A DNA stretch of 64,000 bases from Phycisphaerae bacterium (GTDB lineage Bacteria; Planctomycetota; Phycisphaerae; UBA1845; Fen-1342). The notes beneath the pieces were generated by a model. That model worked only from the letters and a program-made list of their open reading frames with translations. It had not been told where the DNA came from and did not search any database. Numbering within the stretch: position 1 is the stretch's first letter; the number at the start of each line of letters is the position of its first letter. The stretch covers positions 35,860 through 99,859 of the forward strand of contig JASFQK010000022.1 of the NCBI GenBank assembly GCA_050115495.1, read 5' to 3'. Positions 24,111 to 48,641 of the stretch are shown one piece after another. The translations under genes were made by a program, and so were the position numbers.

Positions 24111-25837
24111 CAGGCCCCCCCGCCGAAGATCTGAGCCAGCGTACGATCAAGCTTCACGCCCTCGATCTGCGGCGTCTGTGGGCGCGCAGATCCCAGCTTC
24201 TCGGAGACGTACTCATGCACGCGAGCGCGAACGTGGTCCATGAACTCGCGCATCGTGATGCGCGTGCCGTTGCCGTCGATCTCGTCCACCAGGAAACGGG
24301 TGAACACGCTCGGCCGGCCGTTCACGCCGGCGCGGGAGGTCTCGTCATCCGCGCAGCCGGCCCAGAGCACGTGATGACGCGGGCTGTCGACGAAGTGTCC
24401 TTCGCCGGCGTCGCCCTTGCTCGGGATGTACTCCGTCGGCAGAACGAGGTGTTCCTGGATCCAGGGGGCCTTGAGGTTCACCGCCTTGAAGTCCTCGCCG
24501 AGCGTGCCGGATCCGGCGTGACAGGAGTCGAAGATAGCCAGCGCGCGGTCGCAATCCAACTCGTCGAGCAGAGCGCCGATCTCGTCATCGACGAGCACGG
24601 ACGAGGCGTCCTCCAGCCCCCACACGTAAAGCACCTCATCCAGGTCGTCTTTCTCGTCCTTGCGGCCGACGTCGTCCATCTGCGCCCCGTGGCCGGAGTA
24701 GTAGAACAGCGCCAGACCGTCCGGACCGACCTGACCGAGGAACTCGCGGATACCGCGGATGATGTTGTCACGCGAGGCCTGGTTGTTGGTGAGCGTGAGG
24801 ATGTTCTCCTCGCTGAACCCGAAGCGATCGACCAGCAGGTCCCGCATCACGCCCACGTCGATCACGCAACTGCTCAGGTCGGATTCCTCGCCGGGGTAGT
24901 CGTCGATGCCCACCAGCAGCGCGTATCGTCCGTCGGACGACCCGCCGGTGCTGAAGGACGGCATCGGGGCCGCGCGCTCGACCGCCTCGACTTCCCGGAT
25001 TCGCAGCTCGTAGTCACCCGATTCCCGTGCGGAGTAGGCGTTGACGACCGCGAAGTACCGGCCGGTGCGCGGGAGCTGGATGCGGATGCGGCTGCTGTTG
25101 CCCGAGCCGAAGTCGTCATTCGACGTCAGCACCGTGCGATCGTCATCTTCCACGATGCCGATGGCCAGAACAGGATCGAAGGACGAGGACGTCAGCGTCA
25201 GCACCAGGGTCTGGCCGCGACGGCCCTGGAAGTAGACGAGCTCGAAGAGGCTGCCGTCGCTGAGGCGATCATCATCGGACGCGGAGAGCCGGCCGCGATG
25301 AACGGGTGGCGGCGCGTCGGTTCCCGAATCGTCTCCGGACCAGCTCGACCGGCGACCCGCCCGCTCGACGTCGATCGTAAGCGTGTACTCGCCGCGATCG
25401 GAGCGGTCCGCGCCGTTCGCGACGACGAGGTACTCACCACCGGTCTCGATCGTGACCTCCAGCCGGGCATCCAGCCCCGGGCCGCTGTCGTCATCTTCCG
25501 CGACGGTGTCGAGGCCTTCGTCCGTACGCCGCACGAGCAGCACGTACGCATCCAGGTCCGTCGAGGACATCGCGATCACCACGCGGTCGCCGGCGGAGAA
25601 GCTCGCCGTGTAGGCGTCGGCCCGCGATCCGTCGCGGATTTGCGTGTCGGAGCTGTCCAGCCGGCCGTATTCCGTCCTCCGCTCCCTGGTCTCGGAGAAG
25701 TCTCCTTTGAGCATGATCTTGTGGGGGGCTTCGAGTTCGGCCGTGATCTGCTTGGCTGGGGCCGGCGAATCGAGGCCGAGCGTGAACAGGCTGAGGCACG
25801 CGGTCGCGATGATGGCGGCGGCAATCCTGGCGTCCAT
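24110..25837 (-). CDS. Signal-peptide-bearing caspase-family (C14) protease with two N-terminal PPC-like domains
   Basis: MDARIAAAIIATACLSLFTLG signal; two PPC-like units (DAYVLL..EDDDSG..DARL; DPVLAI..NDDFG..SSRI); ALLVGIDDY, FYYSGHG, IFDSCH; TGATG coupling to the next caspase. Confidence 0.87.
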   Translation of the reverse strand: MDARIAAAIIATACLSLFTLGLDSPAPAKQITAELEAPHKIMLKGDFSETRERRTEYGRLDSSDTQIRDGSRADAYTASFSAGDRVVIAMSSTDLDAYVLLVRRTDEGLDTVAEDDDSGPGLDARLEVTIETGGEYLVVANGADRSDRGEYTLTIDVERAGRRSSWSGDDSGTDAPPPVHRGRLSASDDDRLSDGSLFELVYFQGRRGQTLVLTLTSSSFDPVLAIGIVEDDDRTVLTSNDDFGSGNSSRIRIQLPRTGRYFAVVNAYSARESGDYELRIREVEAVERAAPMPSFSTGGSSDGRYALLVGIDDYPGEESDLSSCVIDVGVMRDLLVDRFGFSEENILTLTNNQASRDNIIRGIREFLGQVGPDGLALFYYSGHGAQMDDVGRKDEKDDLDEVLYVWGLEDASSVLVDDEIGALLDELDCDRALAIFDSCHAGSGTLGEDFKAVNLKAPWIQEHLVLPTEYIPSKGDAGEGHFVDSPRHHVLWAGCADDETSRAGVNGRPSVFTRFLVDEIDGNGTRITMREFMDHVRARVHEYVSEKLGSARPQTPQIEGVKLDRTLAQIFGGGA

Positions 25838-26547
25838 CGGCAGTCCCCTTTCTGAGCTGCTCTGGGCCCTCATGTGAGAGCCGGGCTTCATCTTCCATCC
25901 ACGAACAATCTGCCTGCGCACGGGTGCTGGCGAGCGCTCGCCCATCGAGGCAATTACGACACCCGCTCGCTCATTTGGATGCAGTTCTCGCTCGAGAGTT
26001 CCGCCCCTCGCCCGGCGTCGAACCGGAGACATGTCCGGACAAGAACGGAAACCCATTGTAGCAAGCACGATAGCACGTCGGAAGCATGCCTGACCGGGGG
26101 CACGCGACGGCCCGGACGCGTTGGATGCGGCTCGCGCGTCCGCCGCCGCCGAGCCGGCCGCCGACGGAGTCCGGAAGCCGGCCCGTGAGCGGTTCCGAAC
26201 CTCGGAGCCGGCCCGCGTTCTTTACGCCGGCGGGGCGGGGCGGCATCATGGTGATGGCTGCCCGTCGACGCTTTTCGATCTGCCGCCTGGCGGCAGCGCC
26301 GGCGTCCTGACGGCGGCCGCGACGTGGTGCTTCCTGACGCCTGCCCGCGAGATGGGAGGGTTATTTTGGCGCTCCATTCCGGTCACGCGGTGAAGATGGG
26401 GAGCGGCTTGGTTACACGAACGGGACATATATCGGCGACCGAATCCGGTACCGTCAGAACCGAACCAGCCCGGCGACCACTCGCACTTCTAAGGTCCGCT
26501 CGTGCTCGTTAAGAATCGTGAATGAGGCGGGGTGAAAGCCGGACGAG

Positions 26548-29500
26548 ATGCGTATGACCTACTGCCCACAGCGAGACCAGATCCGCACCTGGCGATACGC
26601 AATCCGAACGAGCAGCATCGGCATCTGCCTGCTGCTTCTCGTCGCGGCACCACCCGCGCCAGCCCAGGAAACGCATCTGCTCAAACCGGGCGCTACGATC
26701 ATCATCGAGGGAGAGCTAACAACCGCGGACCCACATCCAAACGGTAGCCGCCCTGTCGACACGTACATCGTCACCGTCCCCGGCGGGCCGATCGCCATCG
26801 ACGTGTACTCGTCGGATGTCGACACCTACCTGCACGTCGCGCTGGAAGAGGATGATGGTCACCTCGCGACGATTGGTGATGATGACGGAGGCGCTGATAC
26901 GGATAGCCGCCTTGCGTTCAAACTGACGCATGCGCGGATCGTGTGCATTTCGGTTACTTCGATTGGCGCCGGCGAGTATGGCCGGTACAGGCTCCTGCTC
27001 ACCTCTGGCACACCCGGCGGCCCGTTTCTACCGTTTCACGCGCTCGCCACGGTGCTTGAATTGCAGGACGACATGGACGACCGCAGGCAGGCGTTTGCGG
27101 AACAGGACATGCGCTTGCTGGCCAGCACCATCGCGTCAGCCGAGCAGATCGTCGCCATCAGGGAATCGCATCAGGCAGACTGGCCTGATGGCCGAGGCCC
27201 CTGGTGGGAGCTGCGAGACAGCGAACTGCAAGTCGCCGAATTGAGACGGCTTCAGACACGCTCCGCGGAAGAGACGGCAGAACTGCGTGACGCCCGCATC
27301 GAGTTCGACATCGCCCTCGAAAGCGCCACTCCGGAGACGGCGGCAGAGGCGCTGCGCGATGCCGATCGCAGTCGGCTCGTGATGCAGTGCATCATGGGAG
27401 ATGATCACCCGGATGTACTCGAAGCGCTCATCTATTCCGGCTATGCGCTGTATTCCCTCCACCAGTACACTGACGCTGAACCCTACTTCCGCGAGGCGAT
27501 GGAGAAGCAGCGCCGGGTGCTGGGCCCGGATCACCCTTCCACACTGCTCTCGGTGACCCTGTATGGTGCCGTGCTGGCGCGGCTGGACCGACCGGGGGAG
27601 GCCGAGCCCTACCACCGCGAGGCGCTGGAGGGCCGGCGCCGTGTGCTCGGCAGCAATCATCGCGACACGGTTGCCTCCTTGCTGGATTACGCCCACCTGC
27701 TCCACGCTCTCGGCCGCGATATGGAAGCTCAGCCCTATCGGCGGCAGGCGCTGGAGTGCAAACGACGAATACTCGGCAATGAGGACCCAAGCACCATGGC
27801 CTCGCTCTATGTCTACGGGGTTCGCGTCTTGGCGCTCGATTGCCCAATGGAGGCCGAACCGTACCTTCGCGAAGCCCTGGAATTGCGCCAGTCCGTCCTG
27901 GGGTACAACCATCCGGACACGCTGCATTCGCTGGATGCCTACGGGCTGGTCATGGAATCACTGGGGCGCAATGCGGAGGCTCTGCTGTACTGGCGGGCCG
28001 CAATGGACGGTCGCCGTCGCGTGTTGGGAGAGGATCACCCGCTGACTTTGGGATCGCTGGAGCATTACGGTTCCGCGCTCTGGGCGCTGGATCGGCCGGC
28101 GCAGGCCGAACCGTATCTGCGTGCGGCCGTGGAAGGGCGTCGTCGCGTGCTGGGCGAACTGCATCCGCACACCCTGCGGTCACTTGGTCGCTTGGGTTGC
28201 CTGCTTCGCCTGTTGGACCGACCGACCGACGCTGAACCGTATTGTCGCCAGGCACTCGAAGGATGGCGCCAGATACGGGGGGATGATGACTCCGAGTACC
28301 TGGACTCACTTGCGGATTACGGCAACCTGCTGCACGACCTGGGCAGGCCGGCTGAGGCCCGGTCATGCCTTCGCGACGCATTGGCAGGATGTCGGCGCAC
28401 GTTGGGAAACAACCACCCGTTGACCTTCTCGGTTCTCCAGAGCCACGTGTTGGGGCTTCACGACACGGACGATGCAGGGGAAGTTCTCTCAGCGTACCGT
28501 GAGTTGCTGGAAATCACCGAGCGACTGAGAGTGGAGACCGTCGCCACCGAGTTGCAGCGCGCAGAGAAAGCGAACGAATACGACCTGGCGGAGACCGGGC
28601 GATACCTCGCCTGGCTGGAACTGGACCAAGGCGACTGCAGGTTGGCGCACGAGGCGATGGAACGAAGCACGTCGCGGGCGCTGTTGGATCTGATCGAGCG
28701 AGGCCGTGAAGGCGCGGCGAAGATCGTTGATCCGGCACTGCTCGCCCGTATCGCTGCGGCACGGGAGCGCGAGTCGGAAACGCGGCAGGCGGTTGTCTCT
28801 GCAGAACACCGCCTTGCCACGATGCGTGAGTCTCTGCGGCGAGACGCGGCAGGATCCGGACGGCGCGCCGAGGAAGTCCGCATGCAGAGAGCGGAAGTCG
28901 AGCGTTTGCGACAGCTTCTCAGCGAACGAACTCTGGCTGTGTTCAGACTGCTGCGCGATGCATACCCGGTGGCAAGACCGCTGCAGGCGAGTGAATTACA
29001 GGCGAGCCTGGGCGCAGATGAAGCCATCGTTCAATTCGGCTGGTTGAATGCCGGTGCTGCATTGGCAATGGCACTCGATGCACGCCACCTGGAGGGCGGC
29101 GAGATCGGCGTGCGTGAGCCGTCTGTTGAGGCGCTCGAGGCGAGTGTCGAGGCATTGAAGCACGATTGCGCCACACGCGGAGCGCTCGCCGCAGATGATG
29201 TGCGGCTCCGTCAGCTTCGCGAGGGGCTCTTCCCCTCGAAGGTCGGGGAGATGATCGATGCCGCGAAGCGGGTCGTCATCATACCGGACGGTCCGCTCAA
29301 CGGTCTTCCGTTCGGTCTGCTCCTGCCGGACAAGGAGGTATCCTACGCTGCCTCGGCCACGATGTACGTGGATCGTGTCCGGGCTGCGCGGGCGCAGGCC
29401 GATACCGAACGTTCCAAAGCTGTCCTCGTCGTCGGTGATCCCGACTTTGGCAATGCGCCCGCTCCGACGCGTACTCCTTCGCTGGACGAGCCCCTTGAGC

Positions 29501-30414
29501 GTGTCTCTGCCCGGGCCAACTCCCTGGACGACCTGCGTCTGCACGGCGGCCGATTGAGTCGCCTGTGCGGTACGCGCTTGGAGGCGTTGGCGATCGACCG
29601 CCTGGCACAGGCTCAGGGTCTGGATTCGACGGCGCTCCTGCAGGCCCGGGCAACTGCACCGGAGGTGGCCGCCGCCGCGAAGCACTCACCCCGTTTCCTG
29701 CACCTCGCTACGCATGGGCTCCTCGGTGACGCGCAGCGGCCGTACGACGTAAGCCTTGCCTTGACTCAACCGAAAGTCCCCACGGCGGAGGACATCGGGT
29801 TCCTCCGGCTGGAGGAGTTAGTCGGCAACTGGCAGGGTCACTTGGCCAGGACCGAGCTCGTGACGCTCTCCGCCTGCCAAACGAACGTCGGCGAGCAACG
29901 CGGCGACAGCATGATCAGTCTGCCGTGGGGGTTCTTCTTCGCCGGCGCGCCAACTGTGGTAGCCAGCCTGTGGCAGGTGGACGACGAGGCGACAGCGCTC
30001 TTGATGCAGCGTTTCTACGAAAACCTGCTCGGCGCACATAACGACACGCGCTCCATCCGCGGCCGGAGCTATGGTGCCAACGAGGCCCTCACCAAACTGG
30101 ACGCGCTCGACGAAGCCAAGTTGTGGCTGCGCACGCTGACGCACGACGAAGCCCAGGCCGCCAGGGAACGCTTGTACGAATCGGCCGGCGAAGGGCCGAC
30201 CGACTGTGATGAGAAGCACGGCGATAGCCTGCTCGGCTGGTTGAGTGACCGAGGACGGCTGGCGCCGGCGGTTGCGGCGAACGACGTCGCCCGCCCCGCC
30301 GAACCGGTCGGCTTCGGCCTCGTCGATTGGGAGCTGCCGAAGTCCGAAGAAGAGCTGCCCTACGACCACCCGTATTTCTGGGCCCCGTTCGTCCTCATCG
30401 GGAGCCCGGAGTAA
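26548..30414 (+). CDS. PPC-TPR-CHAT protease with a possible signal peptide
   Basis: IGICLLLLVAAPPAPAQ; PPC-like DTYL..DDDGGADTDSRL; nine 42-aa TPRs; IIPDGPL, HLATHG (His), LSACQT (Cys), ASLWQVDD, HPYFWAPFVLIG. Confidence 0.9.
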   Translation: MRMTYCPQRDQIRTWRYAIRTSSIGICLLLLVAAPPAPAQETHLLKPGATIIIEGELTTADPHPNGSRPVDTYIVTVPGGPIAIDVYSSDVDTYLHVALEEDDGHLATIGDDDGGADTDSRLAFKLTHARIVCISVTSIGAGEYGRYRLLLTSGTPGGPFLPFHALATVLELQDDMDDRRQAFAEQDMRLLASTIASAEQIVAIRESHQADWPDGRGPWWELRDSELQVAELRRLQTRSAEETAELRDARIEFDIALESATPETAAEALRDADRSRLVMQCIMGDDHPDVLEALIYSGYALYSLHQYTDAEPYFREAMEKQRRVLGPDHPSTLLSVTLYGAVLARLDRPGEAEPYHREALEGRRRVLGSNHRDTVASLLDYAHLLHALGRDMEAQPYRRQALECKRRILGNEDPSTMASLYVYGVRVLALDCPMEAEPYLREALELRQSVLGYNHPDTLHSLDAYGLVMESLGRNAEALLYWRAAMDGRRRVLGEDHPLTLGSLEHYGSALWALDRPAQAEPYLRAAVEGRRRVLGELHPHTLRSLGRLGCLLRLLDRPTDAEPYCRQALEGWRQIRGDDDSEYLDSLADYGNLLHDLGRPAEARSCLRDALAGCRRTLGNNHPLTFSVLQSHVLGLHDTDDAGEVLSAYRELLEITERLRVETVATELQRAEKANEYDLAETGRYLAWLELDQGDCRLAHEAMERSTSRALLDLIERGREGAAKIVDPALLARIAAARERESETRQAVVSAEHRLATMRESLRRDAAGSGRRAEEVRMQRAEVERLRQLLSERTLAVFRLLRDAYPVARPLQASELQASLGADEAIVQFGWLNAGAALAMALDARHLEGGEIGVREPSVEALEASVEALKHDCATRGALAADDVRLRQLREGLFPSKVGEMIDAAKRVVIIPDGPLNGLPFGLLLPDKEVSYAASATMYVDRVRAARAQADTERSKAVLVVGDPDFGNAPAPTRTPSLDEPLERVSARANSLDDLRLHGGRLSRLCGTRLEALAIDRLAQAQGLDSTALLQARATAPEVAAAAKHSPRFLHLATHGLLGDAQRPYDVSLALTQPKVPTAEDIGFLRLEELVGNWQGHLARTELVTLSACQTNVGEQRGDSMISLPWGFFFAGAPTVVASLWQVDDEATALLMQRFYENLLGAHNDTRSIRGRSYGANEALTKLDALDEAKLWLRTLTHDEAQAARERLYESAGEGPTDCDEKHGDSLLGWLSDRGRLAPAVAANDVARPAEPVGFGLVDWELPKSEEELPYDHPYFWAPFVLIGSPE
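27390..28510 (+). repeat. Nine degenerate 126-nt (42-aa) kinesin-light-chain-type TPR repeats
   Basis: Periodic units: GDDHP, GPDHP, GSNHR, GNEDP, GYNHP, GEDHP, GELHP, GDDDS, GNNHP, most followed by an AEPY-like motif. Confidence 0.85.
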
Positions 30415-32656: not shown

Positions 32657-33171
32657 GCATGCAACAGGATCGGCTGGCGGTGGAGATCGACGCGCTGGTG
32701 GATCGCCACGGCCGCGGGCGGTCCGCCCTGGTTCCGATTCTCCAGGATGTCCGGCGGCGCTACCACGCCATCAGTGACTTCGCGATGCAGACAGTGGCCG
32801 ACCGACTCAGCATACACCCCGTCGAGGTGTACGGTGTGGTGACGTTCTATGCCTTTCTGAGCGAGAAGCACCAGGGGCGGTTCGTCATTCGGCTATGCCG
32901 CACGGTCAGTTGTGACATGGCGGGCAAGGACGCGGTGGCGCGGCAACTCTGCAACGACCTGGGCATCGATTTCGGCGAGACCACGCGCGACGGGCGTTTC
33001 ACGCTGGAATGGGCCAACTGCATCGGCATGTGCGACCAGGGTCCGGCCCTGCTCGTTAACGACCAGGTCTTCACCCGCGTCACGCCGGAGAAGGTGCACG
33101 ACATCCTCACAGCGTGCGAACGGGCCTTCGGATCCCACGCTCTCCAGACCAAGGAGGAGCACGCACTATGA
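32650..33171 (+). CDS. NuoE-like [2Fe-2S] subunit of an NAD-linked [FeFe]-hydrogenase (HydC/HndA-like)
   Basis: VYGVVTFY, CRTVSC and CIGMC ligands. Confidence 0.92.
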   Translation: MLSMQQDRLAVEIDALVDRHGRGRSALVPILQDVRRRYHAISDFAMQTVADRLSIHPVEVYGVVTFYAFLSEKHQGRFVIRLCRTVSCDMAGKDAVARQLCNDLGIDFGETTRDGRFTLEWANCIGMCDQGPALLVNDQVFTRVTPEKVHDILTACERAFGSHALQTKEEHAL

Positions 33172-34364
33172 CCATCCGCAACGACATGACGCTCGCTGCC
33201 GTGGTGCCGAACGCCGGCCTGGCGGCAGCGCTGAAGATGGATCGCGCCGGCGTGATCGGCGAGATTCGCAACTCCGGGATGAAGGGGCGCGGCGGCGCCG
33301 GCTTTCCGACCGGGGTCAAGTGGAACCTCGCCGCCGGCGCGCGTGGCGAACGCAAGTTCGTCGTGTGCAACGCCGACGAAGGGGAACCCGGAACGTTCAA
33401 GGACCGCGTGATCCTCAGCGAGTGGCCCGACCTAGTCTTCGAGGGGATGACCATCGCCGGCTACGCCATCGGGGCGGCGGAGGGAATCCTGTACCTGCGC
33501 GGTGAATACAGCTACCTGCGGAAGGGACTGGAGGAATGCCTGGCCAAACGCCGAGCGGCAAAGCTGTTGGGAGCCGGCGCCGGCGGCAAGGAGGGCTTCT
33601 CCTTCGACATCCACCTGCACATGGGCTCTGGCGCGTACGTCTGCGGCGAGGAGACCGCGCTGATCGAGAGCCTGGAGGGCCATCGCGGCGAGGCGCGCAA
33701 CCGGCCCCCCTTCCCAGTGAACACGGGTCTCAACGGCATGCCGACGATCGTGAACAACGTGGAGACGTTCGCCTGGGCGAGCGCGGTCTTCGCCAAGGGC
33801 GCGGACTGGTTCAAGGGGATCGGGACGGAGAAATCGACCGGACCCAAGATGCTCAGCGTCTCGGGCGACGTCGAGCGTGCCGGCGTGTACCAGTTTCCGC
33901 TGGGGACGGCGGTACGGGACGTGCTGAAGGCCGCGGGCGGTGACGGTGCGAAGGCCGTGGTGATCGGCGGCGCGTCCGGCCACTGCGTGCCGGCGGACCA
34001 GTTCGACCGGGCCATCAGCTACGAGGACGTGGCCACGGGCGGCGCGGTGATCGTGTTCGGTCCAGAGCGGGACATGCTCGACGTGGCCGAGAACTTCCTC
34101 GAGTTCTTCGTGGACGAGTCCTGCGGGCAGTGCACGCCGTGCCGCATCGGGAACGTGAAGCTGCTCGAAGGCGTTCGCCGGCTGAAGCGCGGCGAATGCT
34201 CATCGGGGTATCTTCGCGAGCTGTGTGCCCTGGGCGAGACGATGCAGGTCGCCTCGAAATGCGGCCTGGGCCAGTCCAGCCCCAACGCGTTCCTTTCAAT
34301 CATTGAGCATTTCCGTCACGAGGTCCTGGGCCGGGCTTGCGCGACGATCGAGGCATGGGAGTAA
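33168..34364 (+). CDS. Short NuoF-like FMN/NAD-binding subunit (HydB/HndC-like)
   Basis: GRGGAGFPTG, NADEGEPGTFKDR, GAYVCGEETAL, NNVET, ESCGQCTPCR, CGLG; no extra ferredoxin domains. Confidence 0.93.
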   Translation: MTIRNDMTLAAVVPNAGLAAALKMDRAGVIGEIRNSGMKGRGGAGFPTGVKWNLAAGARGERKFVVCNADEGEPGTFKDRVILSEWPDLVFEGMTIAGYAIGAAEGILYLRGEYSYLRKGLEECLAKRRAAKLLGAGAGGKEGFSFDIHLHMGSGAYVCGEETALIESLEGHRGEARNRPPFPVNTGLNGMPTIVNNVETFAWASAVFAKGADWFKGIGTEKSTGPKMLSVSGDVERAGVYQFPLGTAVRDVLKAAGGDGAKAVVIGGASGHCVPADQFDRAISYEDVATGGAVIVFGPERDMLDVAENFLEFFVDESCGQCTPCRIGNVKLLEGVRRLKRGECSSGYLRELCALGETMQVASKCGLGQSSPNAFLSIIEHFRHEVLGRACATIEAWE

Positions 34365-34367
34365 ATC

Positions 34368-36314
34368 ATGAACAGAGACAAACCCTGCGCCGATGGAAGC
34401 TGCCGCGCCCCGACCAGCCAGCGTTCACAAGTGGTTGACGCCCCACGCAATACCGAAGAGATCGGTGCCCTGGTCAGCGTCAACATCGACGATCACGCCA
34501 TCAAGGTGCCCATCGGCACGACCATTCTGGAGGCAGCCAGGCAGATCGGCGTCCACATCCCGACGCTGTGCCACCACGACGACCTGTGCGTGGCCGGCGT
34601 GTGCCGCGTGTGCGTGGTGGAGGTCGAGGGGCAGCGGACGCTCCAGGCGAGCTGCGCCTACCCGATCACCCAGCCGATCACGGTCCGCACACACACACGC
34701 AAGGTGCGGCAGGCGCGGCGGCACATCATCGACCTGCTCCTATCCGAGCACTACGGTGAGTGCTACACCTGCTTCCGTAACAACAACTGCGAGCTCCAGG
34801 CGCTGGCCAAGGAGTACGGCGTCGACTTCTTCCGCTTCGGCCATCCGGACGAGCCGCGGCACGAGGTGGACCACTCGAGCTATGCCGTCGTGCGGGACAT
34901 GAACAAGTGCGTACTCTGCCGCCGCTGCGTGCGTACGTGCATCGACTTGCAGGAAGTCGGCGTGCTGGAAACCGTCGGCCGGGGCGACCAGACCACGATC
35001 TCGACGTACCTGGACAAGCCGCTGGCCGACGTAATCTGCATCAACTGCGGCCAGTGCATCAACCGTTGTCCGACAGGCGCCCTGCGGGCGAACGACCCGA
35101 CCGACGAAGTGTGGGCAGCCATCGATGACCCGACCAAGCACGTGGTTATCCAAACGGCGCCGAGCCCGCGGGCGGGCATTGGCGAGGAGTTCGACCTGGA
35201 GCCGGGCACGCCGATGACCTGGGAGATGAACACCGCCCTGCGGCGTTGCGGCTTCGACAAGGTCTTCGACACCAACTTCACCGCCGACCTGACCATCATC
35301 GAGGAAGGCACCGAGCTGATCCTGCGGCTGTACAAGAACCTGGTGCAGGGTGACGCCTCGCTGCCGCTGCCACAGTTCACGTCGTGCAGCCCGGGCTGGG
35401 TCAAGTACATCGAGCACTTCTATCCGGAATATCTGCCGCACGTTTCGAGCTGCAAAAGCCCGCAGCAGATGTTCGGGGCGCTCATCAAGACGTGGTACGC
35501 CCAGGTCAACCAGATCGATCCGGCGAACATCGTCTCCGTCGCCCTGATGCCGTGTGCGGCCAAGAAATTCGAGTGCAACCGCCCCGAGATGTGCGACAGC
35601 GGGCACAAGGACGTCGACTACGGGCTGACCACGCGCGAGCTGGCCCAGATGATCCGCGAAGCCGGCATCAACCTGCCCGAGATGCCCAAGAGCGATTTCG
35701 ACGACCCGTTTGGCACGGCCAGCGGCTCCGGCGTCATCTTCGGGGCGACCGGCGGGGTCATGGAGGCCGCGTTGCGCTCGGTCATTGAGTTCGTCACCGG
35801 CAAGAAGGTCGAGGACTTCTACAAGCACGCCGACATCGTACCGATCCGTGGCTTCGATGGCTGCCGGTACGTCGAGCTCACCATCCCGAATGAGGTCGGC
35901 CCCGTGCCCGGTCTGATTAAGCACCTTGTACCGAACTGGGACTGGCTCAAGGGCGCGACGCTCAAGGTCGGCGTCGCTCACGGCACCGCCAACGCCAGGA
36001 AGGTGATGGAAGACATCAAGGCTGGCGGCAAGTTCAGCGAGTGCCACTTCATCGAGTTCATGGCCTGTCCGGGCGGTTGCCTCGGCGGCGGCGGACAACC
36101 GATTCCGACCAGCCCGGCTATCCGCGCGGCCCGAGCCCGGGCGATCTACGCCGAGGACGCGGCCTACGGCGACGCCGGCAAGGCCCGCAAGAGCCACGAC
36201 AACCCGGCGGTGCTGCGCGTGTATGGAGAGTTTCTGATGGATGGCCCGTGCGGACATCAGAGCCATCACTTGCTGCACACGCACTATACGCCGCGTGGGA
36301 AGTACATCGGATGA
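34368..36314 (+). CDS. hydA: [FeFe]-hydrogenase catalytic subunit, group A (HydA/HndD-like)
   Basis: H-cluster motifs FTSCSPGW, MPCAAKKFE, EFMACPGGCLGGGGQP; N-terminal [2Fe-2S], His-ligated HYGECYTC and 2x[4Fe-4S]. Confidence 0.96.
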   Translation: MNRDKPCADGSCRAPTSQRSQVVDAPRNTEEIGALVSVNIDDHAIKVPIGTTILEAARQIGVHIPTLCHHDDLCVAGVCRVCVVEVEGQRTLQASCAYPITQPITVRTHTRKVRQARRHIIDLLLSEHYGECYTCFRNNNCELQALAKEYGVDFFRFGHPDEPRHEVDHSSYAVVRDMNKCVLCRRCVRTCIDLQEVGVLETVGRGDQTTISTYLDKPLADVICINCGQCINRCPTGALRANDPTDEVWAAIDDPTKHVVIQTAPSPRAGIGEEFDLEPGTPMTWEMNTALRRCGFDKVFDTNFTADLTIIEEGTELILRLYKNLVQGDASLPLPQFTSCSPGWVKYIEHFYPEYLPHVSSCKSPQQMFGALIKTWYAQVNQIDPANIVSVALMPCAAKKFECNRPEMCDSGHKDVDYGLTTRELAQMIREAGINLPEMPKSDFDDPFGTASGSGVIFGATGGVMEAALRSVIEFVTGKKVEDFYKHADIVPIRGFDGCRYVELTIPNEVGPVPGLIKHLVPNWDWLKGATLKVGVAHGTANARKVMEDIKAGGKFSECHFIEFMACPGGCLGGGGQPIPTSPAIRAARARAIYAEDAAYGDAGKARKSHDNPAVLRVYGEFLMDGPCGHQSHHLLHTHYTPRGKYIG

Positions 36315-42125: not shown

Positions 42126-43046
42126 GTGATGGCCAAGGCGCAGACGCCGGCGGGTTTCGGCCGCATCCTCTACTGCCACTGCGCCCACGCGCAGGTTGTG
42201 CCCGAGGCGGTCAGAGAGGAAGTACTGCATCGGCTGCATGCGTCCGGCGTGCCGTTCGACGCGGTTCCCGACCTCTGCGGGCTGGCGGCGAAGCGAGACG
42301 ACAATTTGCGACAACTGGCATCCGAGCGGCCGCTCAGAATCGCCGCCTGCTTCCCCCGTGCCGTGCGCTGGATGCTGGCCACGGCGGGTATCCCCCTGCC
42401 GACCGAGGGCGTCGAGATTCTGAACATGCGGACTATGTCGGCGGATGAGGTGGTCGTCGGCTTGCTGGGAGGCGTGCGTGAAGAACACACAACCCGTGAC
42501 GCGGCGGAGACGGACCAGATTGCGGCCATGCGCACAGCGGTCGAAGCCGGGCCGGCGGACGGCTGGATCCCCTGGTTCCCGGTGATCGACGCCGACCGCT
42601 GCGGCAACTGCCAGCAGTGCCTGTCGTTCTGCCTGTTCGGCGTGTACGGTCACTCGGAAACGGGTCAGGTTGAGGTGCAGCGGCCGGAGAACTGCAAGAC
42701 CGACTGCCCGGCGTGTGCCCGCATCTGCCCCGAGGCGGCCATCATCTTCCCGAAATACGGAGCGCCGCCGATCAACGGGGCCGAAGTGCGGCCCGAGGAC
42801 GTGCAGCGCGAAGCCATGGCGGTCGATGTCTCCGCCCGGCTGGGCGGCAACCTCCACCAGATGTTGCGCGAGCGCAGTGCCCAGGCGAAGCGCCGCTTCT
42901 CGCCGGACCAAACGCAGGAGCGAGCCCTGGAGGAGCGGAAGCGCTGTATGTGCAAGTGCCGCACGGCGACCGGCGTGCCGCTGCAGACGCCCGGCTCCCG
43001 TTCGGGCGAGGCGTCCGGGGGCGAGCCGCCGCGATCCACCGACTGA
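42126..43046 (+). CDS. Fe-S protein: HdrA-N-terminus-like Cys module plus 2x[4Fe-4S] ferredoxin domain
   Basis: YCHC...DLC...AACFPR; CGNCQQCLSFC; CKTDCPACARICP. Confidence 0.8.
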   Translation: MMAKAQTPAGFGRILYCHCAHAQVVPEAVREEVLHRLHASGVPFDAVPDLCGLAAKRDDNLRQLASERPLRIAACFPRAVRWMLATAGIPLPTEGVEILNMRTMSADEVVVGLLGGVREEHTTRDAAETDQIAAMRTAVEAGPADGWIPWFPVIDADRCGNCQQCLSFCLFGVYGHSETGQVEVQRPENCKTDCPACARICPEAAIIFPKYGAPPINGAEVRPEDVQREAMAVDVSARLGGNLHQMLRERSAQAKRRFSPDQTQERALEERKRCMCKCRTATGVPLQTPGSRSGEASGGEPPRSTD

Positions 43047-43059
43047 GGAAGGCACGCGC

Positions 43060-44247
43060 ATGCTGCTGCCCCTGGCGAAACGGCTGCTGACCGAGGTGGA
43101 TCGGCGCGCCCTGTGGAAGTTCATGTGGAACTTCGGCTTCCACGGGATGCGGGCCGTGCAGCGCTTCAAACGCCGGCTGCGCAGCGGCGTGCACTTCCCG
43201 CCGTTTCTCTACGTTTCGATCATCAATTCGTGCCAGCTTCGTTGCCAGGGCTGCTGGGTGGACGTCGCGGCCCCGCGGCGGATGATCACACTGGAGGAGA
43301 TGAACCGGCTCATCGACGAGGCGAAGCGCTACGGCAACCGCTTCTTCGGTTTGCTCGGCGGTGAGCCCCTGCTGCACCCGCAGTTGTTCGAAATCCTCGA
43401 AGCCCATCCGGACTGCTACTTCCAGCTCTTCACCAACGGGCACTTGCTCACCGATGAGGCGGCGCGGCGGCTGCGGGCGGTCGGCAACACGACACCGCTC
43501 ATCAGCATCGAAGGGTCGGAGGCGGCCAGCGATGAGCGGCGGGGCCAGTCGCACGTCCTGGAGCGGACGCTGGCGGGGCTGGAGAACTGCCGCCGGCACA
43601 AGCTGATTCTCGGCGTGGCCACGAGCGTGTGTCAGACGAACTTCGACCTGGTCAGCGAGACGTGGCTCCGGCGGCTGATCGAACTGGGCGTGCACTACGT
43701 GTGGTTCTACACGTACCGGGTCATCGGCCCGCGGCCGACGCCGGAGCTGGCCCTCCGCCGGGAGCAAATGCGGCAGCTTCGCGAGTTCATCGTAACCATG
43801 CGGAGCCGGCTGCCGATCGGCATCGTCGACGCCTACTGGGACGCTGACGGCGTAGCCCTCTGCCCGATGGCGGCGGGGATCAGCCACCACATCGGCCCCG
43901 GCGGGCACATCGAGCCCTGCCCCATCATCCAGTTCGCCACGGAGACGATCCGCGACGGTGGCCTCTATGATCTGCTGATCCGATCGGAATTTGTTCGTGC
44001 CTGCCGGGAAACCGCCGCAGCCACGACGCGCGGGTGTATCCTGTTGGAGAGGCCGGACCTGGTGCAGGAGCTGGTTCGCACCCACGGTGCGGCGGACACG
44101 ACCCAACGGGCCACCGGCCTGGCGGAGCTTGAGGCCATGGTGCCGCGCGAGAGCCAGCACGACCCCGAGTTCCAGGTGCCGGAGCGGCACTGGCTGTACC
44201 GGTTCGCCAAGCGACATTGGTTCTTCGGATTCGGTGCATACGGATGA
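43060..44247 (+). CDS. Radical SAM protein with SPASM/twitch-like C-terminus
   Basis: CQLRCQGC, LGGEP, FTNG, ISIEG; C-terminal CPMA...IEPCP...GC. Confidence 0.9.
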   Translation: MLLPLAKRLLTEVDRRALWKFMWNFGFHGMRAVQRFKRRLRSGVHFPPFLYVSIINSCQLRCQGCWVDVAAPRRMITLEEMNRLIDEAKRYGNRFFGLLGGEPLLHPQLFEILEAHPDCYFQLFTNGHLLTDEAARRLRAVGNTTPLISIEGSEAASDERRGQSHVLERTLAGLENCRRHKLILGVATSVCQTNFDLVSETWLRRLIELGVHYVWFYTYRVIGPRPTPELALRREQMRQLREFIVTMRSRLPIGIVDAYWDADGVALCPMAAGISHHIGPGGHIEPCPIIQFATETIRDGGLYDLLIRSEFVRACRETAAATTRGCILLERPDLVQELVRTHGAADTTQRATGLAELEAMVPRESQHDPEFQVPERHWLYRFAKRHWFFGFGAYG

Positions 44248-45971
44248 CACACGACGCGATGTCGATGCAGAATTCCGATACGCCGCCGGCGGCGCCGCCG
44301 AAGTCGGTGCGCCCGCCGCAGGAGGGCATCCCGCCGACGTATGCGGAGCGCGAGCGGATCCGGCTGGCGGCGCGTGAATACGTGGCGTCCGCGCGTCCGG
44401 TGCCGCCGCTGTCGCTGACCGAGCTGCACGAGCACGCGGCGCGACTCGGTGCCCAGCTCGGACTGGACGGGCAATATCGCGACTTCACATCGGTGCTGCT
44501 CAACAGCGAAGTGTGGCGCGACACGCTGGCGGGCGTTCCGTATTCGCGGCGTCTACTGCTATTGCCCAAGTGCCTGCGGTCGGCGGACGCGTGCCCGGCG
44601 TCGTTTGACGAGCTCGGGCTCGTGTGCCAGGGCTGCGGGCGCTGCGCGATCGACGAGTTGCAGACCGAGGCCGAGCAGCTTGGGTATGCCGTCCTCTGCG
44701 CCGAGGGGTCGGCCCGGGTGATCGAGCTCATCCAGACCGGGGGCATCGACGCGATCATCGGCATCAGTTGCCTGTCCGTGCTGGAGAAGGCGTTTCCGCA
44801 CATGCAATCCGCCGGCATTCCGGGCGTCGCCATCCCCCTGCTACAGGACGGGTGCCACGACACGTCGCTCGACATGGCGTGGGCGTGGGATGCGATTCAC
44901 CTGACCAGCGATGCACGCTCGTGCCCGCTGGACCTCGACGGCCTGCGACAGACGGTGGACGCGTGGTTTGAGCCGGCGGCGCTCGAGGCCATCCTCGGCC
45001 CGGTGCAATCGCCGACGGAACGCATCGCCCGCGACTGGCTGGCCGGCGCCGGGAAGCGCTGGCGGCCGTTCCTTACGGCGTGCACGTGTGCCGCGCTGGC
45101 GCCGGACCCGCGGGCCCCGCTGTCGGAGGCGGTGCAGCGGATCGCCGTTGCGGTGGAGTGCTTCCACAAGGCGTCGCTGGTGCACGACGACATCGAGGAC
45201 GGCGACGAGTTGCGCTATGGGGCCCCGACGTTGCACGCGGAACACGGTGTGCCGGTGGCGTTGAACGTGGGCGATCTGCTCATCGGCGAGGGCTATCGCC
45301 AGCTCGTGGGCATCGATGTTCCGCCGGCCGTGCGGACGGAAATAGTGCGCATCGCCGCCGCGGGACAGTGCGTTTCCTGTCTCGGGCAGGGCGCCGAGTT
45401 GCATTGGGCCCGCAACGGTGGGCCGCTGTCGTCACAGGCGGTGCTCGACATCTTCCGGCAGAAGACGGCCCCGGCCTTCGAGGTGGCACTGCGGCTCGGC
45501 GCGGCGTACGCGGGTGCAACGCCGGACGTGGCGGAGGTTCTGGCACAATGCAGCGCCGCATTGGGCATCGCCTATCAGATTCGCGACGACCTGGATGACT
45601 TGCAGCCGGGGCACGCTCCGGACGATCTGACCGGGCGGCGGCTGTCGTTGCCGCTGGCCGTGGCGTACGAGTGCACAACCGGCGACGCGCACACCGCGGT
45701 GGAGGCGGCGTGGCAGCGGACCGAGGGACTGGGCGACCGGCTGCGGCAGATCATTGCGGAGTCCGGTGCGGAGGCGCATTGCCGGGAGCTGCTCGATTCG
45801 TATCGGGAGGAAGCGCTCCGCCATCTGGCGAAGTTGGAGAATCCCGATCTGCGGAACCTGCTGCGCCGCGTGGTGGCCAGGATCTACGGGGTCGATTTCA
45901 GGGGCTGGTGTCGTGAGTCTGCGTCTGGACATGCTGCAAACCGCGCGGCGGGCACCGCATCTGCTGGGTGA
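44244..45971 (+). CDS. DUF116-like Cys-rich domain fused to a trans-polyprenyl diphosphate synthase
   Basis: LPKCLR..C....CQGCGRC..ISC..GC; GKRWRP, HDDIED (first Asp-rich motif), GQG.EL, KT, YQIRDDLDD (second Asp-rich motif); ATGA overlap. Confidence 0.87.
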   Translation: MTHDAMSMQNSDTPPAAPPKSVRPPQEGIPPTYAERERIRLAAREYVASARPVPPLSLTELHEHAARLGAQLGLDGQYRDFTSVLLNSEVWRDTLAGVPYSRRLLLLPKCLRSADACPASFDELGLVCQGCGRCAIDELQTEAEQLGYAVLCAEGSARVIELIQTGGIDAIIGISCLSVLEKAFPHMQSAGIPGVAIPLLQDGCHDTSLDMAWAWDAIHLTSDARSCPLDLDGLRQTVDAWFEPAALEAILGPVQSPTERIARDWLAGAGKRWRPFLTACTCAALAPDPRAPLSEAVQRIAVAVECFHKASLVHDDIEDGDELRYGAPTLHAEHGVPVALNVGDLLIGEGYRQLVGIDVPPAVRTEIVRIAAAGQCVSCLGQGAELHWARNGGPLSSQAVLDIFRQKTAPAFEVALRLGAAYAGATPDVAEVLAQCSAALGIAYQIRDDLDDLQPGHAPDDLTGRRLSLPLAVAYECTTGDAHTAVEAAWQRTEGLGDRLRQIIAESGAEAHCRELLDSYREEALRHLAKLENPDLRNLLRRVVARIYGVDFRGWCRESASGHAANRAAGTASAG

Positions 45972-46797
45972 GTCGACCGACCTCGTCCGTCGTTTCCTGC
46001 ATAGCCAGATGAACGCGGATGGTGGGTTTCGCGATCGCGCCGGCCAGAGCGACGTCTACTACACCGTGTTCGGCTTGCAGGGGCTGATCGCACTGGACGC
46101 TGACGTGCCACTGGGGCCTGTCGCGGAGTATCTCGCTTCGCTGGGTTCGGGGACGCAATTCGACCTGGTTCACGCCGCGAGTCTGGCACGTTGTTGGGCC
46201 GCCCTGCCGCCAGCGGAGAAAGCCGGGATGCCGCGTGCCGAGCTTCTGCGACATCTGGCCACGTTTCGCAGCGACGACGGGGCGTACGACATCGCGACAG
46301 GCAGCACGCACGGCACGCTGTACGGCTGCTTCCTCGCACTGGGGGCGTACGAAGACCTCGACGCCGACCTGCCCGAGCCCGCGGCGTTGGTGACTTGTGT
46401 CGAACGACTGCGGACGGATGACGGCGGCTACGCCAACGGCACGGACCTGCCCGTGGGACTGGTGCCAACCACGGCGGCGGCGGTTGCGCTGCTGCGAAAC
46501 CTCGGCCGGCCTGTACCGCCGGAAGTCGGGACGTGGCTCCTGGCACAGCATTGTGCCGGCGGCGGGTTTCTGGCCACGCCCGCGGCGCCGATGCCGGATC
46601 TGCTGTCGACCGCCACGGCGCTCTTCGCACTGCACAGCCTGCACGCCGATCTCGCAGCCGTGCGCGAACCGTGCCTCGACTTCATCAACAGCTTGTGGAC
46701 CAATCGCGGGGCGTTCTGCGGCAACTGGGCCGACGACGTCGTGGACTGCGAGTACACGTACTACGCCCTTCTGGCACTGGGATGTCTGAGTCAGTGA
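45913..46797 (+). CDS. Prenyltransferase/squalene-oxidase-repeat protein (single alpha/alpha barrel)
   Basis: Repeats QMNADGGF, SDDGAY, TDDGGY, AGGGF; SDVYYT, DCEYTYY; no DxDD motif. Confidence 0.8.
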   Translation: MSLRLDMLQTARRAPHLLGESTDLVRRFLHSQMNADGGFRDRAGQSDVYYTVFGLQGLIALDADVPLGPVAEYLASLGSGTQFDLVHAASLARCWAALPPAEKAGMPRAELLRHLATFRSDDGAYDIATGSTHGTLYGCFLALGAYEDLDADLPEPAALVTCVERLRTDDGGYANGTDLPVGLVPTTAAAVALLRNLGRPVPPEVGTWLLAQHCAGGGFLATPAAPMPDLLSTATALFALHSLHADLAAVREPCLDFINSLWTNRGAFCGNWADDVVDCEYTYYALLALGCLSQ

Positions 46798-48641
46798 CGA
46801 TTCGCAGTACGGATACCGACGCCGTGGCCGAGACGCTGGCTAACGCCCGCCAACGTCTGCTCGCGGCCCGCACGGACGCGGGTCATTGGGAGGGCCTGTT
46901 ATCCAGCAGTGCCCTTTCGACCGCGACGGCGTCGTTTGCGCTGTGGTTGTATGCCGAGCGTTCGTCTGGCGCACGCGACGGGCCGAATCGCGCCGAATGT
47001 CGCCGGCTGGCGCAGGCTGGCGCGCACTGGCTGGCCGGTCACCAGAATGCCGACGGCGGCTGGGGCGACACGCCGGAGAGTCCGAGCAACATCAGCACGA
47101 CGGTGCTGGGCTGGGCGGCATTGCACGCCATCGACGGTGATGAGGCCGTGCAGAGCGCTCGCGAGAAGGCCGACGCCTGTGTGGACCGTGCCGCCGGCGG
47201 ACGTGACGCAGACACGCTGACGCGGGCGATCGTCCACCGCTACGGCGACGACCGGACGTTCTCGGCACCGATTCTCACGATGTGCGCGTTGGCCGGCCGG
47301 CTGGGCCCGGATGCGCAGGCTTGGCGACACGTGGCGCAATTGCCATTCGAGTTGGCGGCGTTGCCGCAATCGTGGTTTCAGTTCCTGCGCCTGCCAGTCG
47401 TCAGCTACGCCCTGCCCGCGCTGATCGCCATCGGTCGCGTGCGTCACCATTGCCGGCCGACGCGCAATCCGCTGCTGCGCGCGTTGCGCTGGGCCGCGCG
47501 TCGCCGAACGGAACGAGTCCTGGAACGAATTCAGCCACCCGGCGGCGGGTTCCTCGAAGCGACGCCACTGACGAGCTTCGTGCTCATGAGCCTGGCCGGC
47601 AGCGGGCAGGCGGATGGCGCAGTTGCGACCCGCGCGGCGCAGTTCCTGGCGCGGTCCGTGCGGGCCGATGGTAGTTGGCCGATTGATACGAACCTGGCGA
47701 CGTGGGTCACGACACTCTCCATCCAAGCGCTCGCGACTGCCGGAGCACTGTCCGAGTCGCTGAGCGACGGCGAGCGGCATTCCATCAAAACGTGGCTGCT
47801 CGGACAGCAGTACCGGCAGCGGCACCTCTACACGGGCGCCGATCCCGGCGGCTGGGCCTGGACGGATCTGCCCGGCGGCGTGCCCGACGCGGACGACACG
47901 GCGGGAGCACTCATCGCGCTGCATCAGTTCGGCGCCGAGGACGCCGCAGATGCCGCCGCTGACGGAATCCGCTGGCTGCTGGGTCTTCAGAATCGTGATG
48001 GGGGCATCCCGACGTTTTGCCGAGGCTGGGGCCGCCTGCCGTTTGACCGCAGCACGCCGGAGATCACGGCCCACGCTCTGCTGGCGTGGAGTCTGTGGCA
48101 CGACTCGTTGCCTGCAACACTGGCGAGCAAGGTGCACTACGCCACGCGCCGAGCCCTGGCGTACCTCCGCCGACAACAACGACTGGACGGGGCATGGCTA
48201 CCGCTCTGGTTCGGCAATCAGCATGCGCCAAACGAGCGGAATCCGACGTACGGCACGGCACGCGTCGTGCTGGCGCTGAACCGCTGCCGAACGCACGTGT
48301 CGACGACACGCGAGCCCGTCACCCGCGGCGTTCGCTGGCTGCTCACGGCGCAGAACGCCGATGGCGGCTGGGGCGGCGCACCGGGCGTGCCATCATCCAT
48401 TGAAGAGACCGGCCAGGCCGTGCAGGCGCTGGTGGCGGCGCACGCCGCGGCGCAGAATGAGGTCCTCCCTGCGATCGACCGCGGCACACACTGGCTCGCC
48501 CAGACCACGCACGCCGGACGAGATTTCCCCGCCGCTCCCATCGGCCTGTACTTCGCCAACCTGTGGTATGCCGAGCGGCTCTACCCCCAGATCGCCACCG
48601 TCGCCGCTTTGGGCTTGAAAAAGACTGCCTCGTGCGCATAA
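46782..48641 (+). CDS. Squalene-hopene-cyclase-like class II terpene cyclase
   Basis: GHWEG, QW repeats (QNADGGWG, ADGSW, QNRDGG, LDGAW, QNADGGWG), GGWAW...PDADDT (DxDD), YGT, LYFANLWY. Confidence 0.87.
   Translation: MSESVTIRSTDTDAVAETLANARQRLLAARTDAGHWEGLLSSSALSTATASFALWLYAERSSGARDGPNRAECRRLAQAGAHWLAGHQNADGGWGDTPESPSNISTTVLGWAALHAIDGDEAVQSAREKADACVDRAAGGRDADTLTRAIVHRYGDDRTFSAPILTMCALAGRLGPDAQAWRHVAQLPFELAALPQSWFQFLRLPVVSYALPALIAIGRVRHHCRPTRNPLLRALRWAARRRTERVLERIQPPGGGFLEATPLTSFVLMSLAGSGQADGAVATRAAQFLARSVRADGSWPIDTNLATWVTTLSIQALATAGALSESLSDGERHSIKTWLLGQQYRQRHLYTGADPGGWAWTDLPGGVPDADDTAGALIALHQFGAEDAADAAADGIRWLLGLQNRDGGIPTFCRGWGRLPFDRSTPEITAHALLAWSLWHDSLPATLASKVHYATRRALAYLRRQQRLDGAWLPLWFGNQHAPNERNPTYGTARVVLALNRCRTHVSTTREPVTRGVRWLLTAQNADGGWGGAPGVPSSIEETGQAVQALVAAHAAAQNEVLPAIDRGTHWLAQTTHAGRDFPAAPIGLYFANLWYAERLYPQIATVAALGLKKTASCA

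Follow-up and report, generated by a model that had tools for sequence, protein, structure and literature searches.

The locus described here raises the question of what five tightly packed genes of a planctomycetal bacterium, encoding an iron-sulfur (Fe-S) protein, a radical S-adenosylmethionine (SAM) enzyme, a polyprenyl diphosphate synthase fused to a DUF116 domain, a single-barrel protein and a class II terpenoid cyclase, make together. The genes (g1 to g5, here called the cassette) lie within a 64,000-nt stretch of contig JASFQK010000022.1 of a Phycisphaerae bacterium (assembly GCA_050115495.1), and this whole stretch is what we refer to as the window. We consider it probable that they form the core of a conserved operon for an uncharacterised cyclic polyprenoid lipid, made independently of squalene and with the help of Fe-S and radical SAM chemistry. 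An initial annotation had described a packed, mostly overlapping five-gene operon and proposed for it an oxygen-independent route to a non-hopanoid product. We found the operon as described, with all five genes co-directional and a high third-position G+C content in each open reading frame (ORF), in a window of ~66% G+C:

42129-48641, plus strand: the five-gene cassette as a whole
42129-43046, plus strand: g1, Fe-S protein with a four-Cys N-terminal domain and a 2x[4Fe-4S] ferredoxin domain (weak Fer4 matches)
43060-44247, plus strand: g2, radical SAM enzyme of 395 aa, putatively of the SPASM/twitch group (PF04055, 67.4 bits)
44244-45971, plus strand: g3, fusion of DUF116 with a trans-polyprenyl diphosphate synthase (PF01976 and PF00348)
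45931-46797, plus strand: g4, single alpha/alpha-barrel protein of 288 aa (PF00432, 53.1 bits)
46782-48641, plus strand: g5, two-domain class II terpenoid cyclase with DADD at residues 369-372 (PF13249 and PF13243)

With the starts chosen here, a 13-nt gap separates g1 from g2, and the other three of the four junctions are overlaps of 4 nt (g2/g3), 41 nt (g3/g4) and 16 nt (g4/g5). The start of g1 was placed at the ATG at 42129, which has GAGGAAAGG upstream; the GTG at 42126 given initially is the preceding codon.

A cyclase separate from squalene-hopene cyclase

The cyclase of the cassette has the catalytic motif and the two barrels of a squalene-hopene cyclase (SHC). Both SQHop_cyclase domains are matched, the DADDTA of g5 aligns on the DVDDTA of the solved Alicyclobacillus SHC (1gsz), in agreement with the intact DADD of the initial annotation, and D-x-D-D-T is invariant in 81/81 g5 relatives. 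Against TIGR01507, the model of canonical SHC, g5 reached 95.8 bits, far below the cut-off of 431.1, and a whole-genome search of the source genome (5.97 Mb, 92% complete) found no protein above this cut-off and no HpnH. We then built a maximum likelihood tree of 87 rows, comprising 79 related loci, the window and, from the same phylum, 7 rows of canonical SHC (6 distinct sequences, as two rows are the same gene), after one truncated row of <560 aa had been dropped. The 80 SHC-like rows were split from the 7 canonical rows with support 100, on branches of 4.86 and 5.14 substitutions/site. The cyclase had been taken to be of a non-hopanoid type, a view that grouping with canonical SHCs would have undermined; no such grouping appeared in this tree, in which canonical rows from the same phylum are the only outgroup.

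By description, g5 fits a non-canonical SHC within the published 'SHC-like' clade. This clade was defined by Santana-Molina et al. (2020; PMC7306690), who, in the accessible text of their paper, report that its Planctomycetes members keep the catalytic residues, that a polyprenyl synthase is usually near them, and that a precursor other than squalene may be used. McShea et al. (2025; PMC12324236), likewise from the accessible text, find the clade in PVC, FCB, Spirochaetota and Acidobacteriota, with function not demonstrated, and place it as sister to the epoxy-polyprenyl cyclases, which take head-to-tail chains. The clade as drawn in those parts of the two papers and g5 have in common a divergent two-domain cyclase with kept catalytic Asp residues, a nearby polyprenyl synthase and a range that includes Planctomycetota, Verrucomicrobiota and Acidobacteriota. 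A further link is that the loci related to the cassette include metagenome-assembled genomes (MAGs) labelled Gemmata and Gemmataceae, with cyclases of about 51% identity. Within our tree, g5 comes from a planctomycetal genome yet groups with Acidobacteriota sequences and not with other Planctomycetota, and mixing of phyla is seen across the whole SHC-like clade, which suggests that the cassette may have been transferred repeatedly between phyla.

Conservation and predicted roles of the partner proteins

In order to define the cassette beyond the window, one genome per species was scanned and the best 80 of 555 stretches encoding a cyclase relative were kept; gene families at these 80 loci were scored by tblastn of the window proteins, and neighbours were then found by clustering all ORFs. 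Besides the cyclase (80), we detected the synthase at 41 loci, the Fe-S protein and DUF116 at 40 each, the barrel protein at 35 and the radical SAM enzyme at 29. All five families were found together at 25 loci, 19 of them with the gene order of the window, and these 25 span Verrucomicrobiota, Planctomycetota, Acidobacteriota and Hydrogenedentota. Three flanking genes of the window were tested in the same way and occurred at 0-1/80 loci each, so they do not travel with the cassette, while its five genes are co-conserved as the operon reading had supposed. The pairing of cyclase and radical SAM enzyme also holds at the level of whole genomes. In an even sample of the phylum (151 genomes, cross-tabulated by hand from complete match lists; related genomes are not independent, and absence from a MAG is not proof of absence), 33 genomes had an SHC-like cyclase, and the cassette-type radical SAM enzyme was found in 26 of these and in 0/118 others, in some cases 100-240 kb from the cyclase.

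At other loci the operon is fuller, with the order cysteine desulfurase, GcvH-like protein, CobW-type GTPase, small four-Cys protein, ferredoxin, radical SAM enzyme, DUF116::synthase, barrel and cyclase. The cysteine desulfurase was present at 22/80 loci, the CobW-type GTPase at 25/80 and the GcvH-like protein at 28/80, the last with the lipoyl-lysine motif E-x-x-K-A in 28/28. The window cassette consists of the five-gene core only, and the first three genes of the longer form are not beside it. Cassette-linked counterparts in the source genome were considered and rejected, as those found were an isc-operon NifS, a GcvH of 30% identity and a lone CobW-like gene, all on other contigs. Since the small four-Cys protein of the longer operons corresponds to the N-terminal domain of g1, g1 is best seen as a fusion. 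Its four-Cys N-domain (about residues 1-115) has no Pfam family, and a search of the protein atlas returned unnamed clusters only; the Cys pattern is also kept in stand-alone small proteins of other loci. The ferredoxin domain (about residues 145-210) gave matches to Fer4_6, Fer4_10 and Fer4_9 that are all under their Pfam cut-offs, and its eight Cys are kept in 40/40 relatives bearing the domain.

g3 joins DUF116 (PF01976, 104.9 bits, cut-off 25, residues 69-215) to a polyprenyl diphosphate synthase (PF00348, 134.4 bits, cut-off 27, residues 260-493) with both Asp-rich motifs, DDIED and DDLDD; the Fe-S protein, this fusion and the single-barrel protein named in the initial annotation are thus all present, as judged from Pfam matches, motifs and a structure model. 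Seven Cys of the DUF116 domain, including CxxCxxC, are kept in 39-40/42 relatives. The Asp residues of the first Asp-rich motif (FARM) are present in 41/42; in the second (SARM), the first position holds Asp in 32 of the 42 and Asn in 9, and the other two Asp are found in 41/42. Positions -5/-4 of the FARM are Ala-Ser in 40-41/42 relatives. In trans-prenyltransferases, small residues at these positions allow chains beyond C20, and because g3 has such residues its product is probably longer than C20. The same fusion architecture is seen in Psta_0175 of Pirellula staleyi, described by Makarova et al. (2015; PMC5898192), who read DUF116 as a metal-binding, flavodoxin-like electron-transfer domain with CxxCxxC; unlike the cassette, Psta_0175 stands in the accessible account without cyclase context and without a function.

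For g2, the earlier assignment to radical SAM/SPASM enzymes stands as regards the radical SAM core, with its PF04055 match and CX3CX2C motif, and only in part as regards SPASM, for which there was no Pfam match at E <= 0.01. The relatives listed show 68-91% identity and are nearly all of 396 aa; C119, C268, C287 and C326 are invariant in the family. All NCBIfam matches (NirJ2, AhbD, PTO1314 and others) are far under their cut-offs. Against the HpnH model TIGR03470 g2 scored 35.7 bits (cut-off 225.05), and a Pfam search gave no match to DUF3463 (PF11946), unlike the C-terminal domain of HpnH. We considered g2 as a specific HpnH relative, since a comparison with one HpnH looked full-length, and rejected this when an AhbD-like control matched better: the g2 profile aligned with 10 AhbD-like SPASM enzymes over 277 columns (residues 45-322; Prob 99.2, E 1e-19), and with 14 HpnH sequences over 206 columns (Prob 97.5, E 7e-12). 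The structure model (pLDDT 87.7) has SkfB, PqqE, SuiB, BlsE and anSME as nearest folds, that is, generic SPASM/twitch neighbours only; GDGT-MAS, a lipid enzyme, ranked 40th. Taken together, these features fit a member of the radical SAM SPASM/twitch group whose reaction they do not name. Because four downstream Cys are invariant and the AhbD-like match runs through the C-terminal domain, a twitch- or SPASM-type auxiliary cluster is predicted, and the aromatic, conserved C-terminal tail suggests an enzyme of the membrane surface.

The g2 slot is not filled by the same family everywhere. At four loci (L035, L042, L046, L072) a longer radical SAM enzyme lies between the ferredoxin and DUF116::synthase; it has ~230 extra N-terminal residues and no significant BLAST similarity to g2, and looks like a non-orthologous replacement. 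At three Gemmataceae-type loci (L011, L020, L026), the genes for GcvH, ferredoxin and cyclase are accompanied by a HemN-like radical SAM gene. In one cyclase-positive genome that lacks the usual radical SAM enzyme of the cassette, a stand-alone DUF116 gene lies directly 5′ of an AhbD-like radical SAM gene (G060:C398:526-1967).

The AlphaFold2 model of g4 is one alpha/alpha barrel (pLDDT 96.9), and its Foldseek neighbours are single-domain class II cyclases (8paj, 8pak), MstE and RabGGTase beta. When the profiles of g4 and the cyclase were compared (Prob 91.3, E 9.4e-7), the PDLLST of g4 fell exactly on the PDADDT of the cyclase. No Cys or His is invariant or >=90% conserved among g4 relatives, on which ground a zinc-dependent thiol prenyltransferase was ruled out. 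It is in fold alone that g4 matches prenyltransferase beta subunits and single-domain class II cyclases, since zinc ligands and catalytic Asp are both missing, and it is predicted to be a cyclase-domain relative with neither proton donor nor zinc site.

Proposed pathway and its alternatives

From the gene content, motifs, folds and conservation pattern described above, and from the separation of g5 and g2 from true SHC and HpnH, we infer a substrate, chain length, product and order of steps, together with the chemistry of g1, g2 and DUF116, as follows. The synthase half of g3 would elongate isopentenyl and dimethylallyl diphosphate (IPP/DMAPP) to an all-trans polyprenyl diphosphate, probably of >C20. 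g4, which has lost the proton-donor Asp, would on the simplest interpretation of its model bind the hydrophobic chain or pass it on. The DxDD acid of g5 would protonate the terminal double bond, and the chain would fold into fused rings. g2, receiving electrons from the ferredoxin-type protein g1, may carry out a single radical reaction at the membrane surface with the terpenoid as its substrate, and the Fe-S-type DUF116 domain of g3 may add a further redox step of an unspecified kind.

Several points weigh against this pathway. No member has a known product, substrate or activity. The co-occurrence counts overstate the evidence because related genomes are not independent. Many related loci have the cyclase alone within 8 kb, several of these being short or truncated contigs. 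The synthase of g3 is overall closest to short-chain (C15-C20) enzymes, its closest solved and curated relatives being archaeal-type geranylgeranyl (GGPP) and farnesyl (FPP) diphosphate synthases, so that the case for a long chain comes down to two residues and the general rule given above. A gene of the squalene/phytoene synthase (SQS/PSY) family, PF00494, is present in 23/33 cyclase genomes, the source genome included, which keeps squalene among the possible substrates of the cyclase. Finally, the desulfurase, GcvH-like and CobW extras of other phyla are left unexplained by a simple lipid pathway.

One alternative, which we hold unlikely while granting it some weight, is that DUF116, with or without g2, makes the substrate of the cyclase, by reductive removal or coupling of the allylic diphosphate to give a hydrocarbon polyprene. 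DUF116 is fused to the synthase in 40/42 synthase relatives from the 80 loci and is present in 33/33 cyclase genomes (27/118 others, mostly in a short stand-alone form), no phosphatase or class I synthase was seen in the cassette, and SHC-type cyclases use hydrocarbon substrates. Such a role would also suit the published reading of DUF116, in the accessible text, as an electron-transfer module (PMC5898192). The step itself is purely inferred, however; diphosphates are also direct substrates for class II cyclases, and in f30, a low-G+C family of the phylum, stand-alone DUF116 lies in def-fmt-DUF116-rsmB operons with no isoprenoid link. To our knowledge, no enzyme removes or couples an allylic diphosphate reductively as DUF116 would have to.

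The f30 genomes had offered a candidate of their own, in which DUF116 would be a squalene-supply factor for true SHC: the 8 genomes of the family have SHC in 8/8, PF00494 in 0/8 and DUF116 in 8/8, with DUF116 4-7 kb from SHC in 3. We examined the DUF116 regions of six genomes. In the two that are annotated, a 147-aa DUF116 gene lies between fmt and rsmB (L095:11321-13376 in G049; L098:7109-10705 in G026), and the gene-size pattern is alike in the other four. This context is predicted to be translation or one-carbon related, unlike that of the isoprenoid fusion, and the candidate was rejected, the proximity to SHC being a coincidence.

We also think it unlikely that the cassette is a divergent hopanoid-type pathway, in which g3 would supply FPP, g5 would take squalene from a lone SQS/PSY gene and g2 would lengthen or alter the triterpenoid in the manner of HpnH or HpnP. 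Several observations speak in its favour. The DxDD motif suits an unactivated alkene such as squalene, g3 is most like short-chain synthases, and the PF00494 family (81/151 genomes overall) is matched in the 23 cyclase genomes mentioned above. In the source genome, which has no canonical SHC or HpnH, the one PF00494 gene would leave g5 as the only triterpenoid cyclase. That gene encodes 314 aa and lies on another contig, directly beside dxs (G000:C24:53163-56152, L086:9164-12153). The claim that no squalene synthase is near therefore stands for the operon and the 64-kb window, within which no PF00494 gene was found, and has to be qualified for the genome, which holds this one divergent member of the family. 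It scores under every NCBIfam cut-off, however, the best being squalene synthase at 81.7 versus 286.75.

The distribution of the cyclase also speaks against a hopanoid role. No PF00494 match was found in 10/33 cyclase genomes, including genomes that are 99%, 98% and 96% complete. Canonical SHC (49/151 genomes) is already present in 17/33, and genomes such as G134, G003 and G120 have the cyclase together with true SHC and true HpnH, the latter being found in 48/151. As seen above, the profile of g2 is closer to AhbD-like enzymes than to HpnH, and g2 gave no match to DUF3463. Because canonical SHC co-occurs in 17 genomes and PF00494 is not found in 10, the SHC-like cyclase is predicted to function apart from the hopanoid pathway, either beside it or without a recognisable squalene synthase. 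The squalene-independent product proposed at the outset thus gains from these two groups of genomes and loses from the 23 that have an SQS/PSY gene. Comparison with the hopanoid pathway itself (HpnCDE, SHC/HpnF, HpnH) leads in the same direction. Each system has a supply of isoprenoid chains, a beta-gamma cyclase with DxDD and a radical SAM enzyme, but HpnC, HpnD and HpnE are missing from the cassette, whose partners are Fe-S proteins, and g5 and g2 fall below the SHC and HpnH cut-offs; other genomes contain the cyclase and radical SAM families of the cassette alongside true SHC and HpnH.

A meroterpenoid pathway, in which the polyprenyl chain folded by g5 would already carry a head group, aromatic or other, as is the case for Lon15, AtoE and MstE, is in our judgement very improbable. 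The g4 fold matches MstE, and the sister position of the clade to epoxy-polyprenyl/meroterpenoid cyclases, as given in the accessible text of PMC12324236, would be in keeping with it; against this, no conserved UbiA- or ABBA-type prenyltransferase, epoxidase or aromatic-precursor gene was found at the 80 loci, g4 lacks conserved Cys/His for a zinc site, and DxDD fits activation of an alkene and not of an epoxide. We give the least credence of all to modification of a protein or cofactor instead of a lipid, for example addition of prenyl or sulfur to a GcvH-like carrier with g2 as maturase, which would account for the desulfurase, GcvH-like (with its Lys motif) and CobW genes of the longer operons and for the peptide maturases SkfB, PqqE and SuiB as nearest folds of g2, since the window cassette has none of these three extras (only housekeeping-like copies exist elsewhere in the genome), its packed genes leave no space for one encoding a precursor peptide, fold ranking among SPASM enzymes is uninformative on function, and the acid motif of the cyclase is kept in all 81 relatives.

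Known systems, surroundings and significance

Among known systems outside the hopanoid pathway, a cyclic polyprenoid lipid made by the cassette would find a parallel in sporulenol, a C35 sesquarterpene that Bacillus makes with HepS/HepT, YtpB and SqhC. There, as summarised in the accessible text of PMC7306690, a dedicated synthase makes a regular polyprenyl diphosphate, and an SHC relative cyclises a head-to-tail polyprenyl-derived product. The cassette differs in having no YtpB-type class I enzyme and in the clade of its cyclase, and the Bacillus route has no Fe-S or radical SAM partners.

Already published (accessible text of PMC7306690) are the cyclase clade, its polyprenyl synthase neighbour and the suggestion that the precursor is not squalene. 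To these are added the Fe-S protein, the radical SAM enzyme, the DUF116 fusion, the dead barrel and the longer form of the operon with NifS, GcvH and CobW. The term 'radical SAM' occurs 0 times in PMC7306690, main text and supplement taken together as far as accessible, and the polyprenyl synthase is the sole neighbour mentioned there and in the accessible text of PMC12324236. The cassette is likewise not mentioned in the accessible parts of a 2026 review of lipid-modifying radical SAM enzymes (PMC13459092). The figure legend of a Bipolaricaulota preprint, which is the part of it available, describes a cluster that contains DUF116, IspH, SHC, a polyprenyl synthetase and a gene annotated as HpnH. 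A characterised product would have overturned the initial annotation; we found none for the cassette in a literature search that did not extend to subscription journals and bioRxiv supplements. The window cassette is one more member of a real, uncharacterised system, and the gain from this window alone is small.

Upstream of the cassette lies a divergently transcribed transglutaminase-like gene, and rtcB follows after ~550 nt. Scans ill-suited to such a G+C content and phylum gave neither a sigma-70-like promoter ahead of g1 nor an intrinsic terminator. Other genes of the window bear on lifestyle. An NrdD (717 aa, PF13597) with its radical SAM activase lies at 18218-21021 on the plus strand, in DNA of 0.61 G+C (versus about 0.66), and points to an anaerobic or facultative lifestyle; at 33114-36314 on the plus strand, a NuoF-like flavoprotein gene (Complex1_51K) precedes the large subunit of an [FeFe]-hydrogenase with N-terminal Fe-S domains, a pair resembling components of a multimeric and possibly bifurcating hydrogenase. 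The oxygen-independent route of the initial annotation would be in keeping with enzyme families that do not need O2 and with a genome that looks anaerobic. However, the cassette is also found in MAGs labelled Gemmata, Chthoniobacter, Pedosphaera, Bryobacterales and Vicinamibacterales, which are largely aerobic groups. As a separate observation, two caspase-domain (Peptidase_C14) proteins are encoded on the minus strand beside a 1288-aa TPR-CHAT protein (21969-30414) and may belong to a conflict or programmed-death-type module.

Hopanoids and sterols, which regulate membranes and are the chief molecular fossils, are products of class II cyclases. Yet a whole clade of such enzymes, the SHC-like cyclases of Planctomycetota, Verrucomicrobiota, Acidobacteriota and others, is without a known product according to the accessible text of PMC12324236. 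For this clade the cassette provides a defined, testable gene set consisting of chain synthase, cyclase, dead-barrel partner, radical SAM enzyme and Fe-S partner. In a more specific form of our reading, which we regard as quite unlikely and put forward as speculation, the cassette would make polycyclic regular polyprenoids of the tricyclopolyprenol type by a route that depends on Fe-S and radical chemistry and not on squalene: DUF116 would strip or reduce the diphosphate, g5 would fold the chain end only, and g2 would functionalise the product. If this were true, the products would be the proposed biological parents of the extended tricyclic terpane biomarkers of rocks and oils. We know of no source organism for parents of the tricyclohexaprenol type. 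'Tricyclohexaprenol' is named as the parent compound in the accessible text of PMC12980184. Identification of the product could add a bacterial lipid class, perhaps the source of an orphan biomarker, and a radical SAM reaction on isoprenoids.

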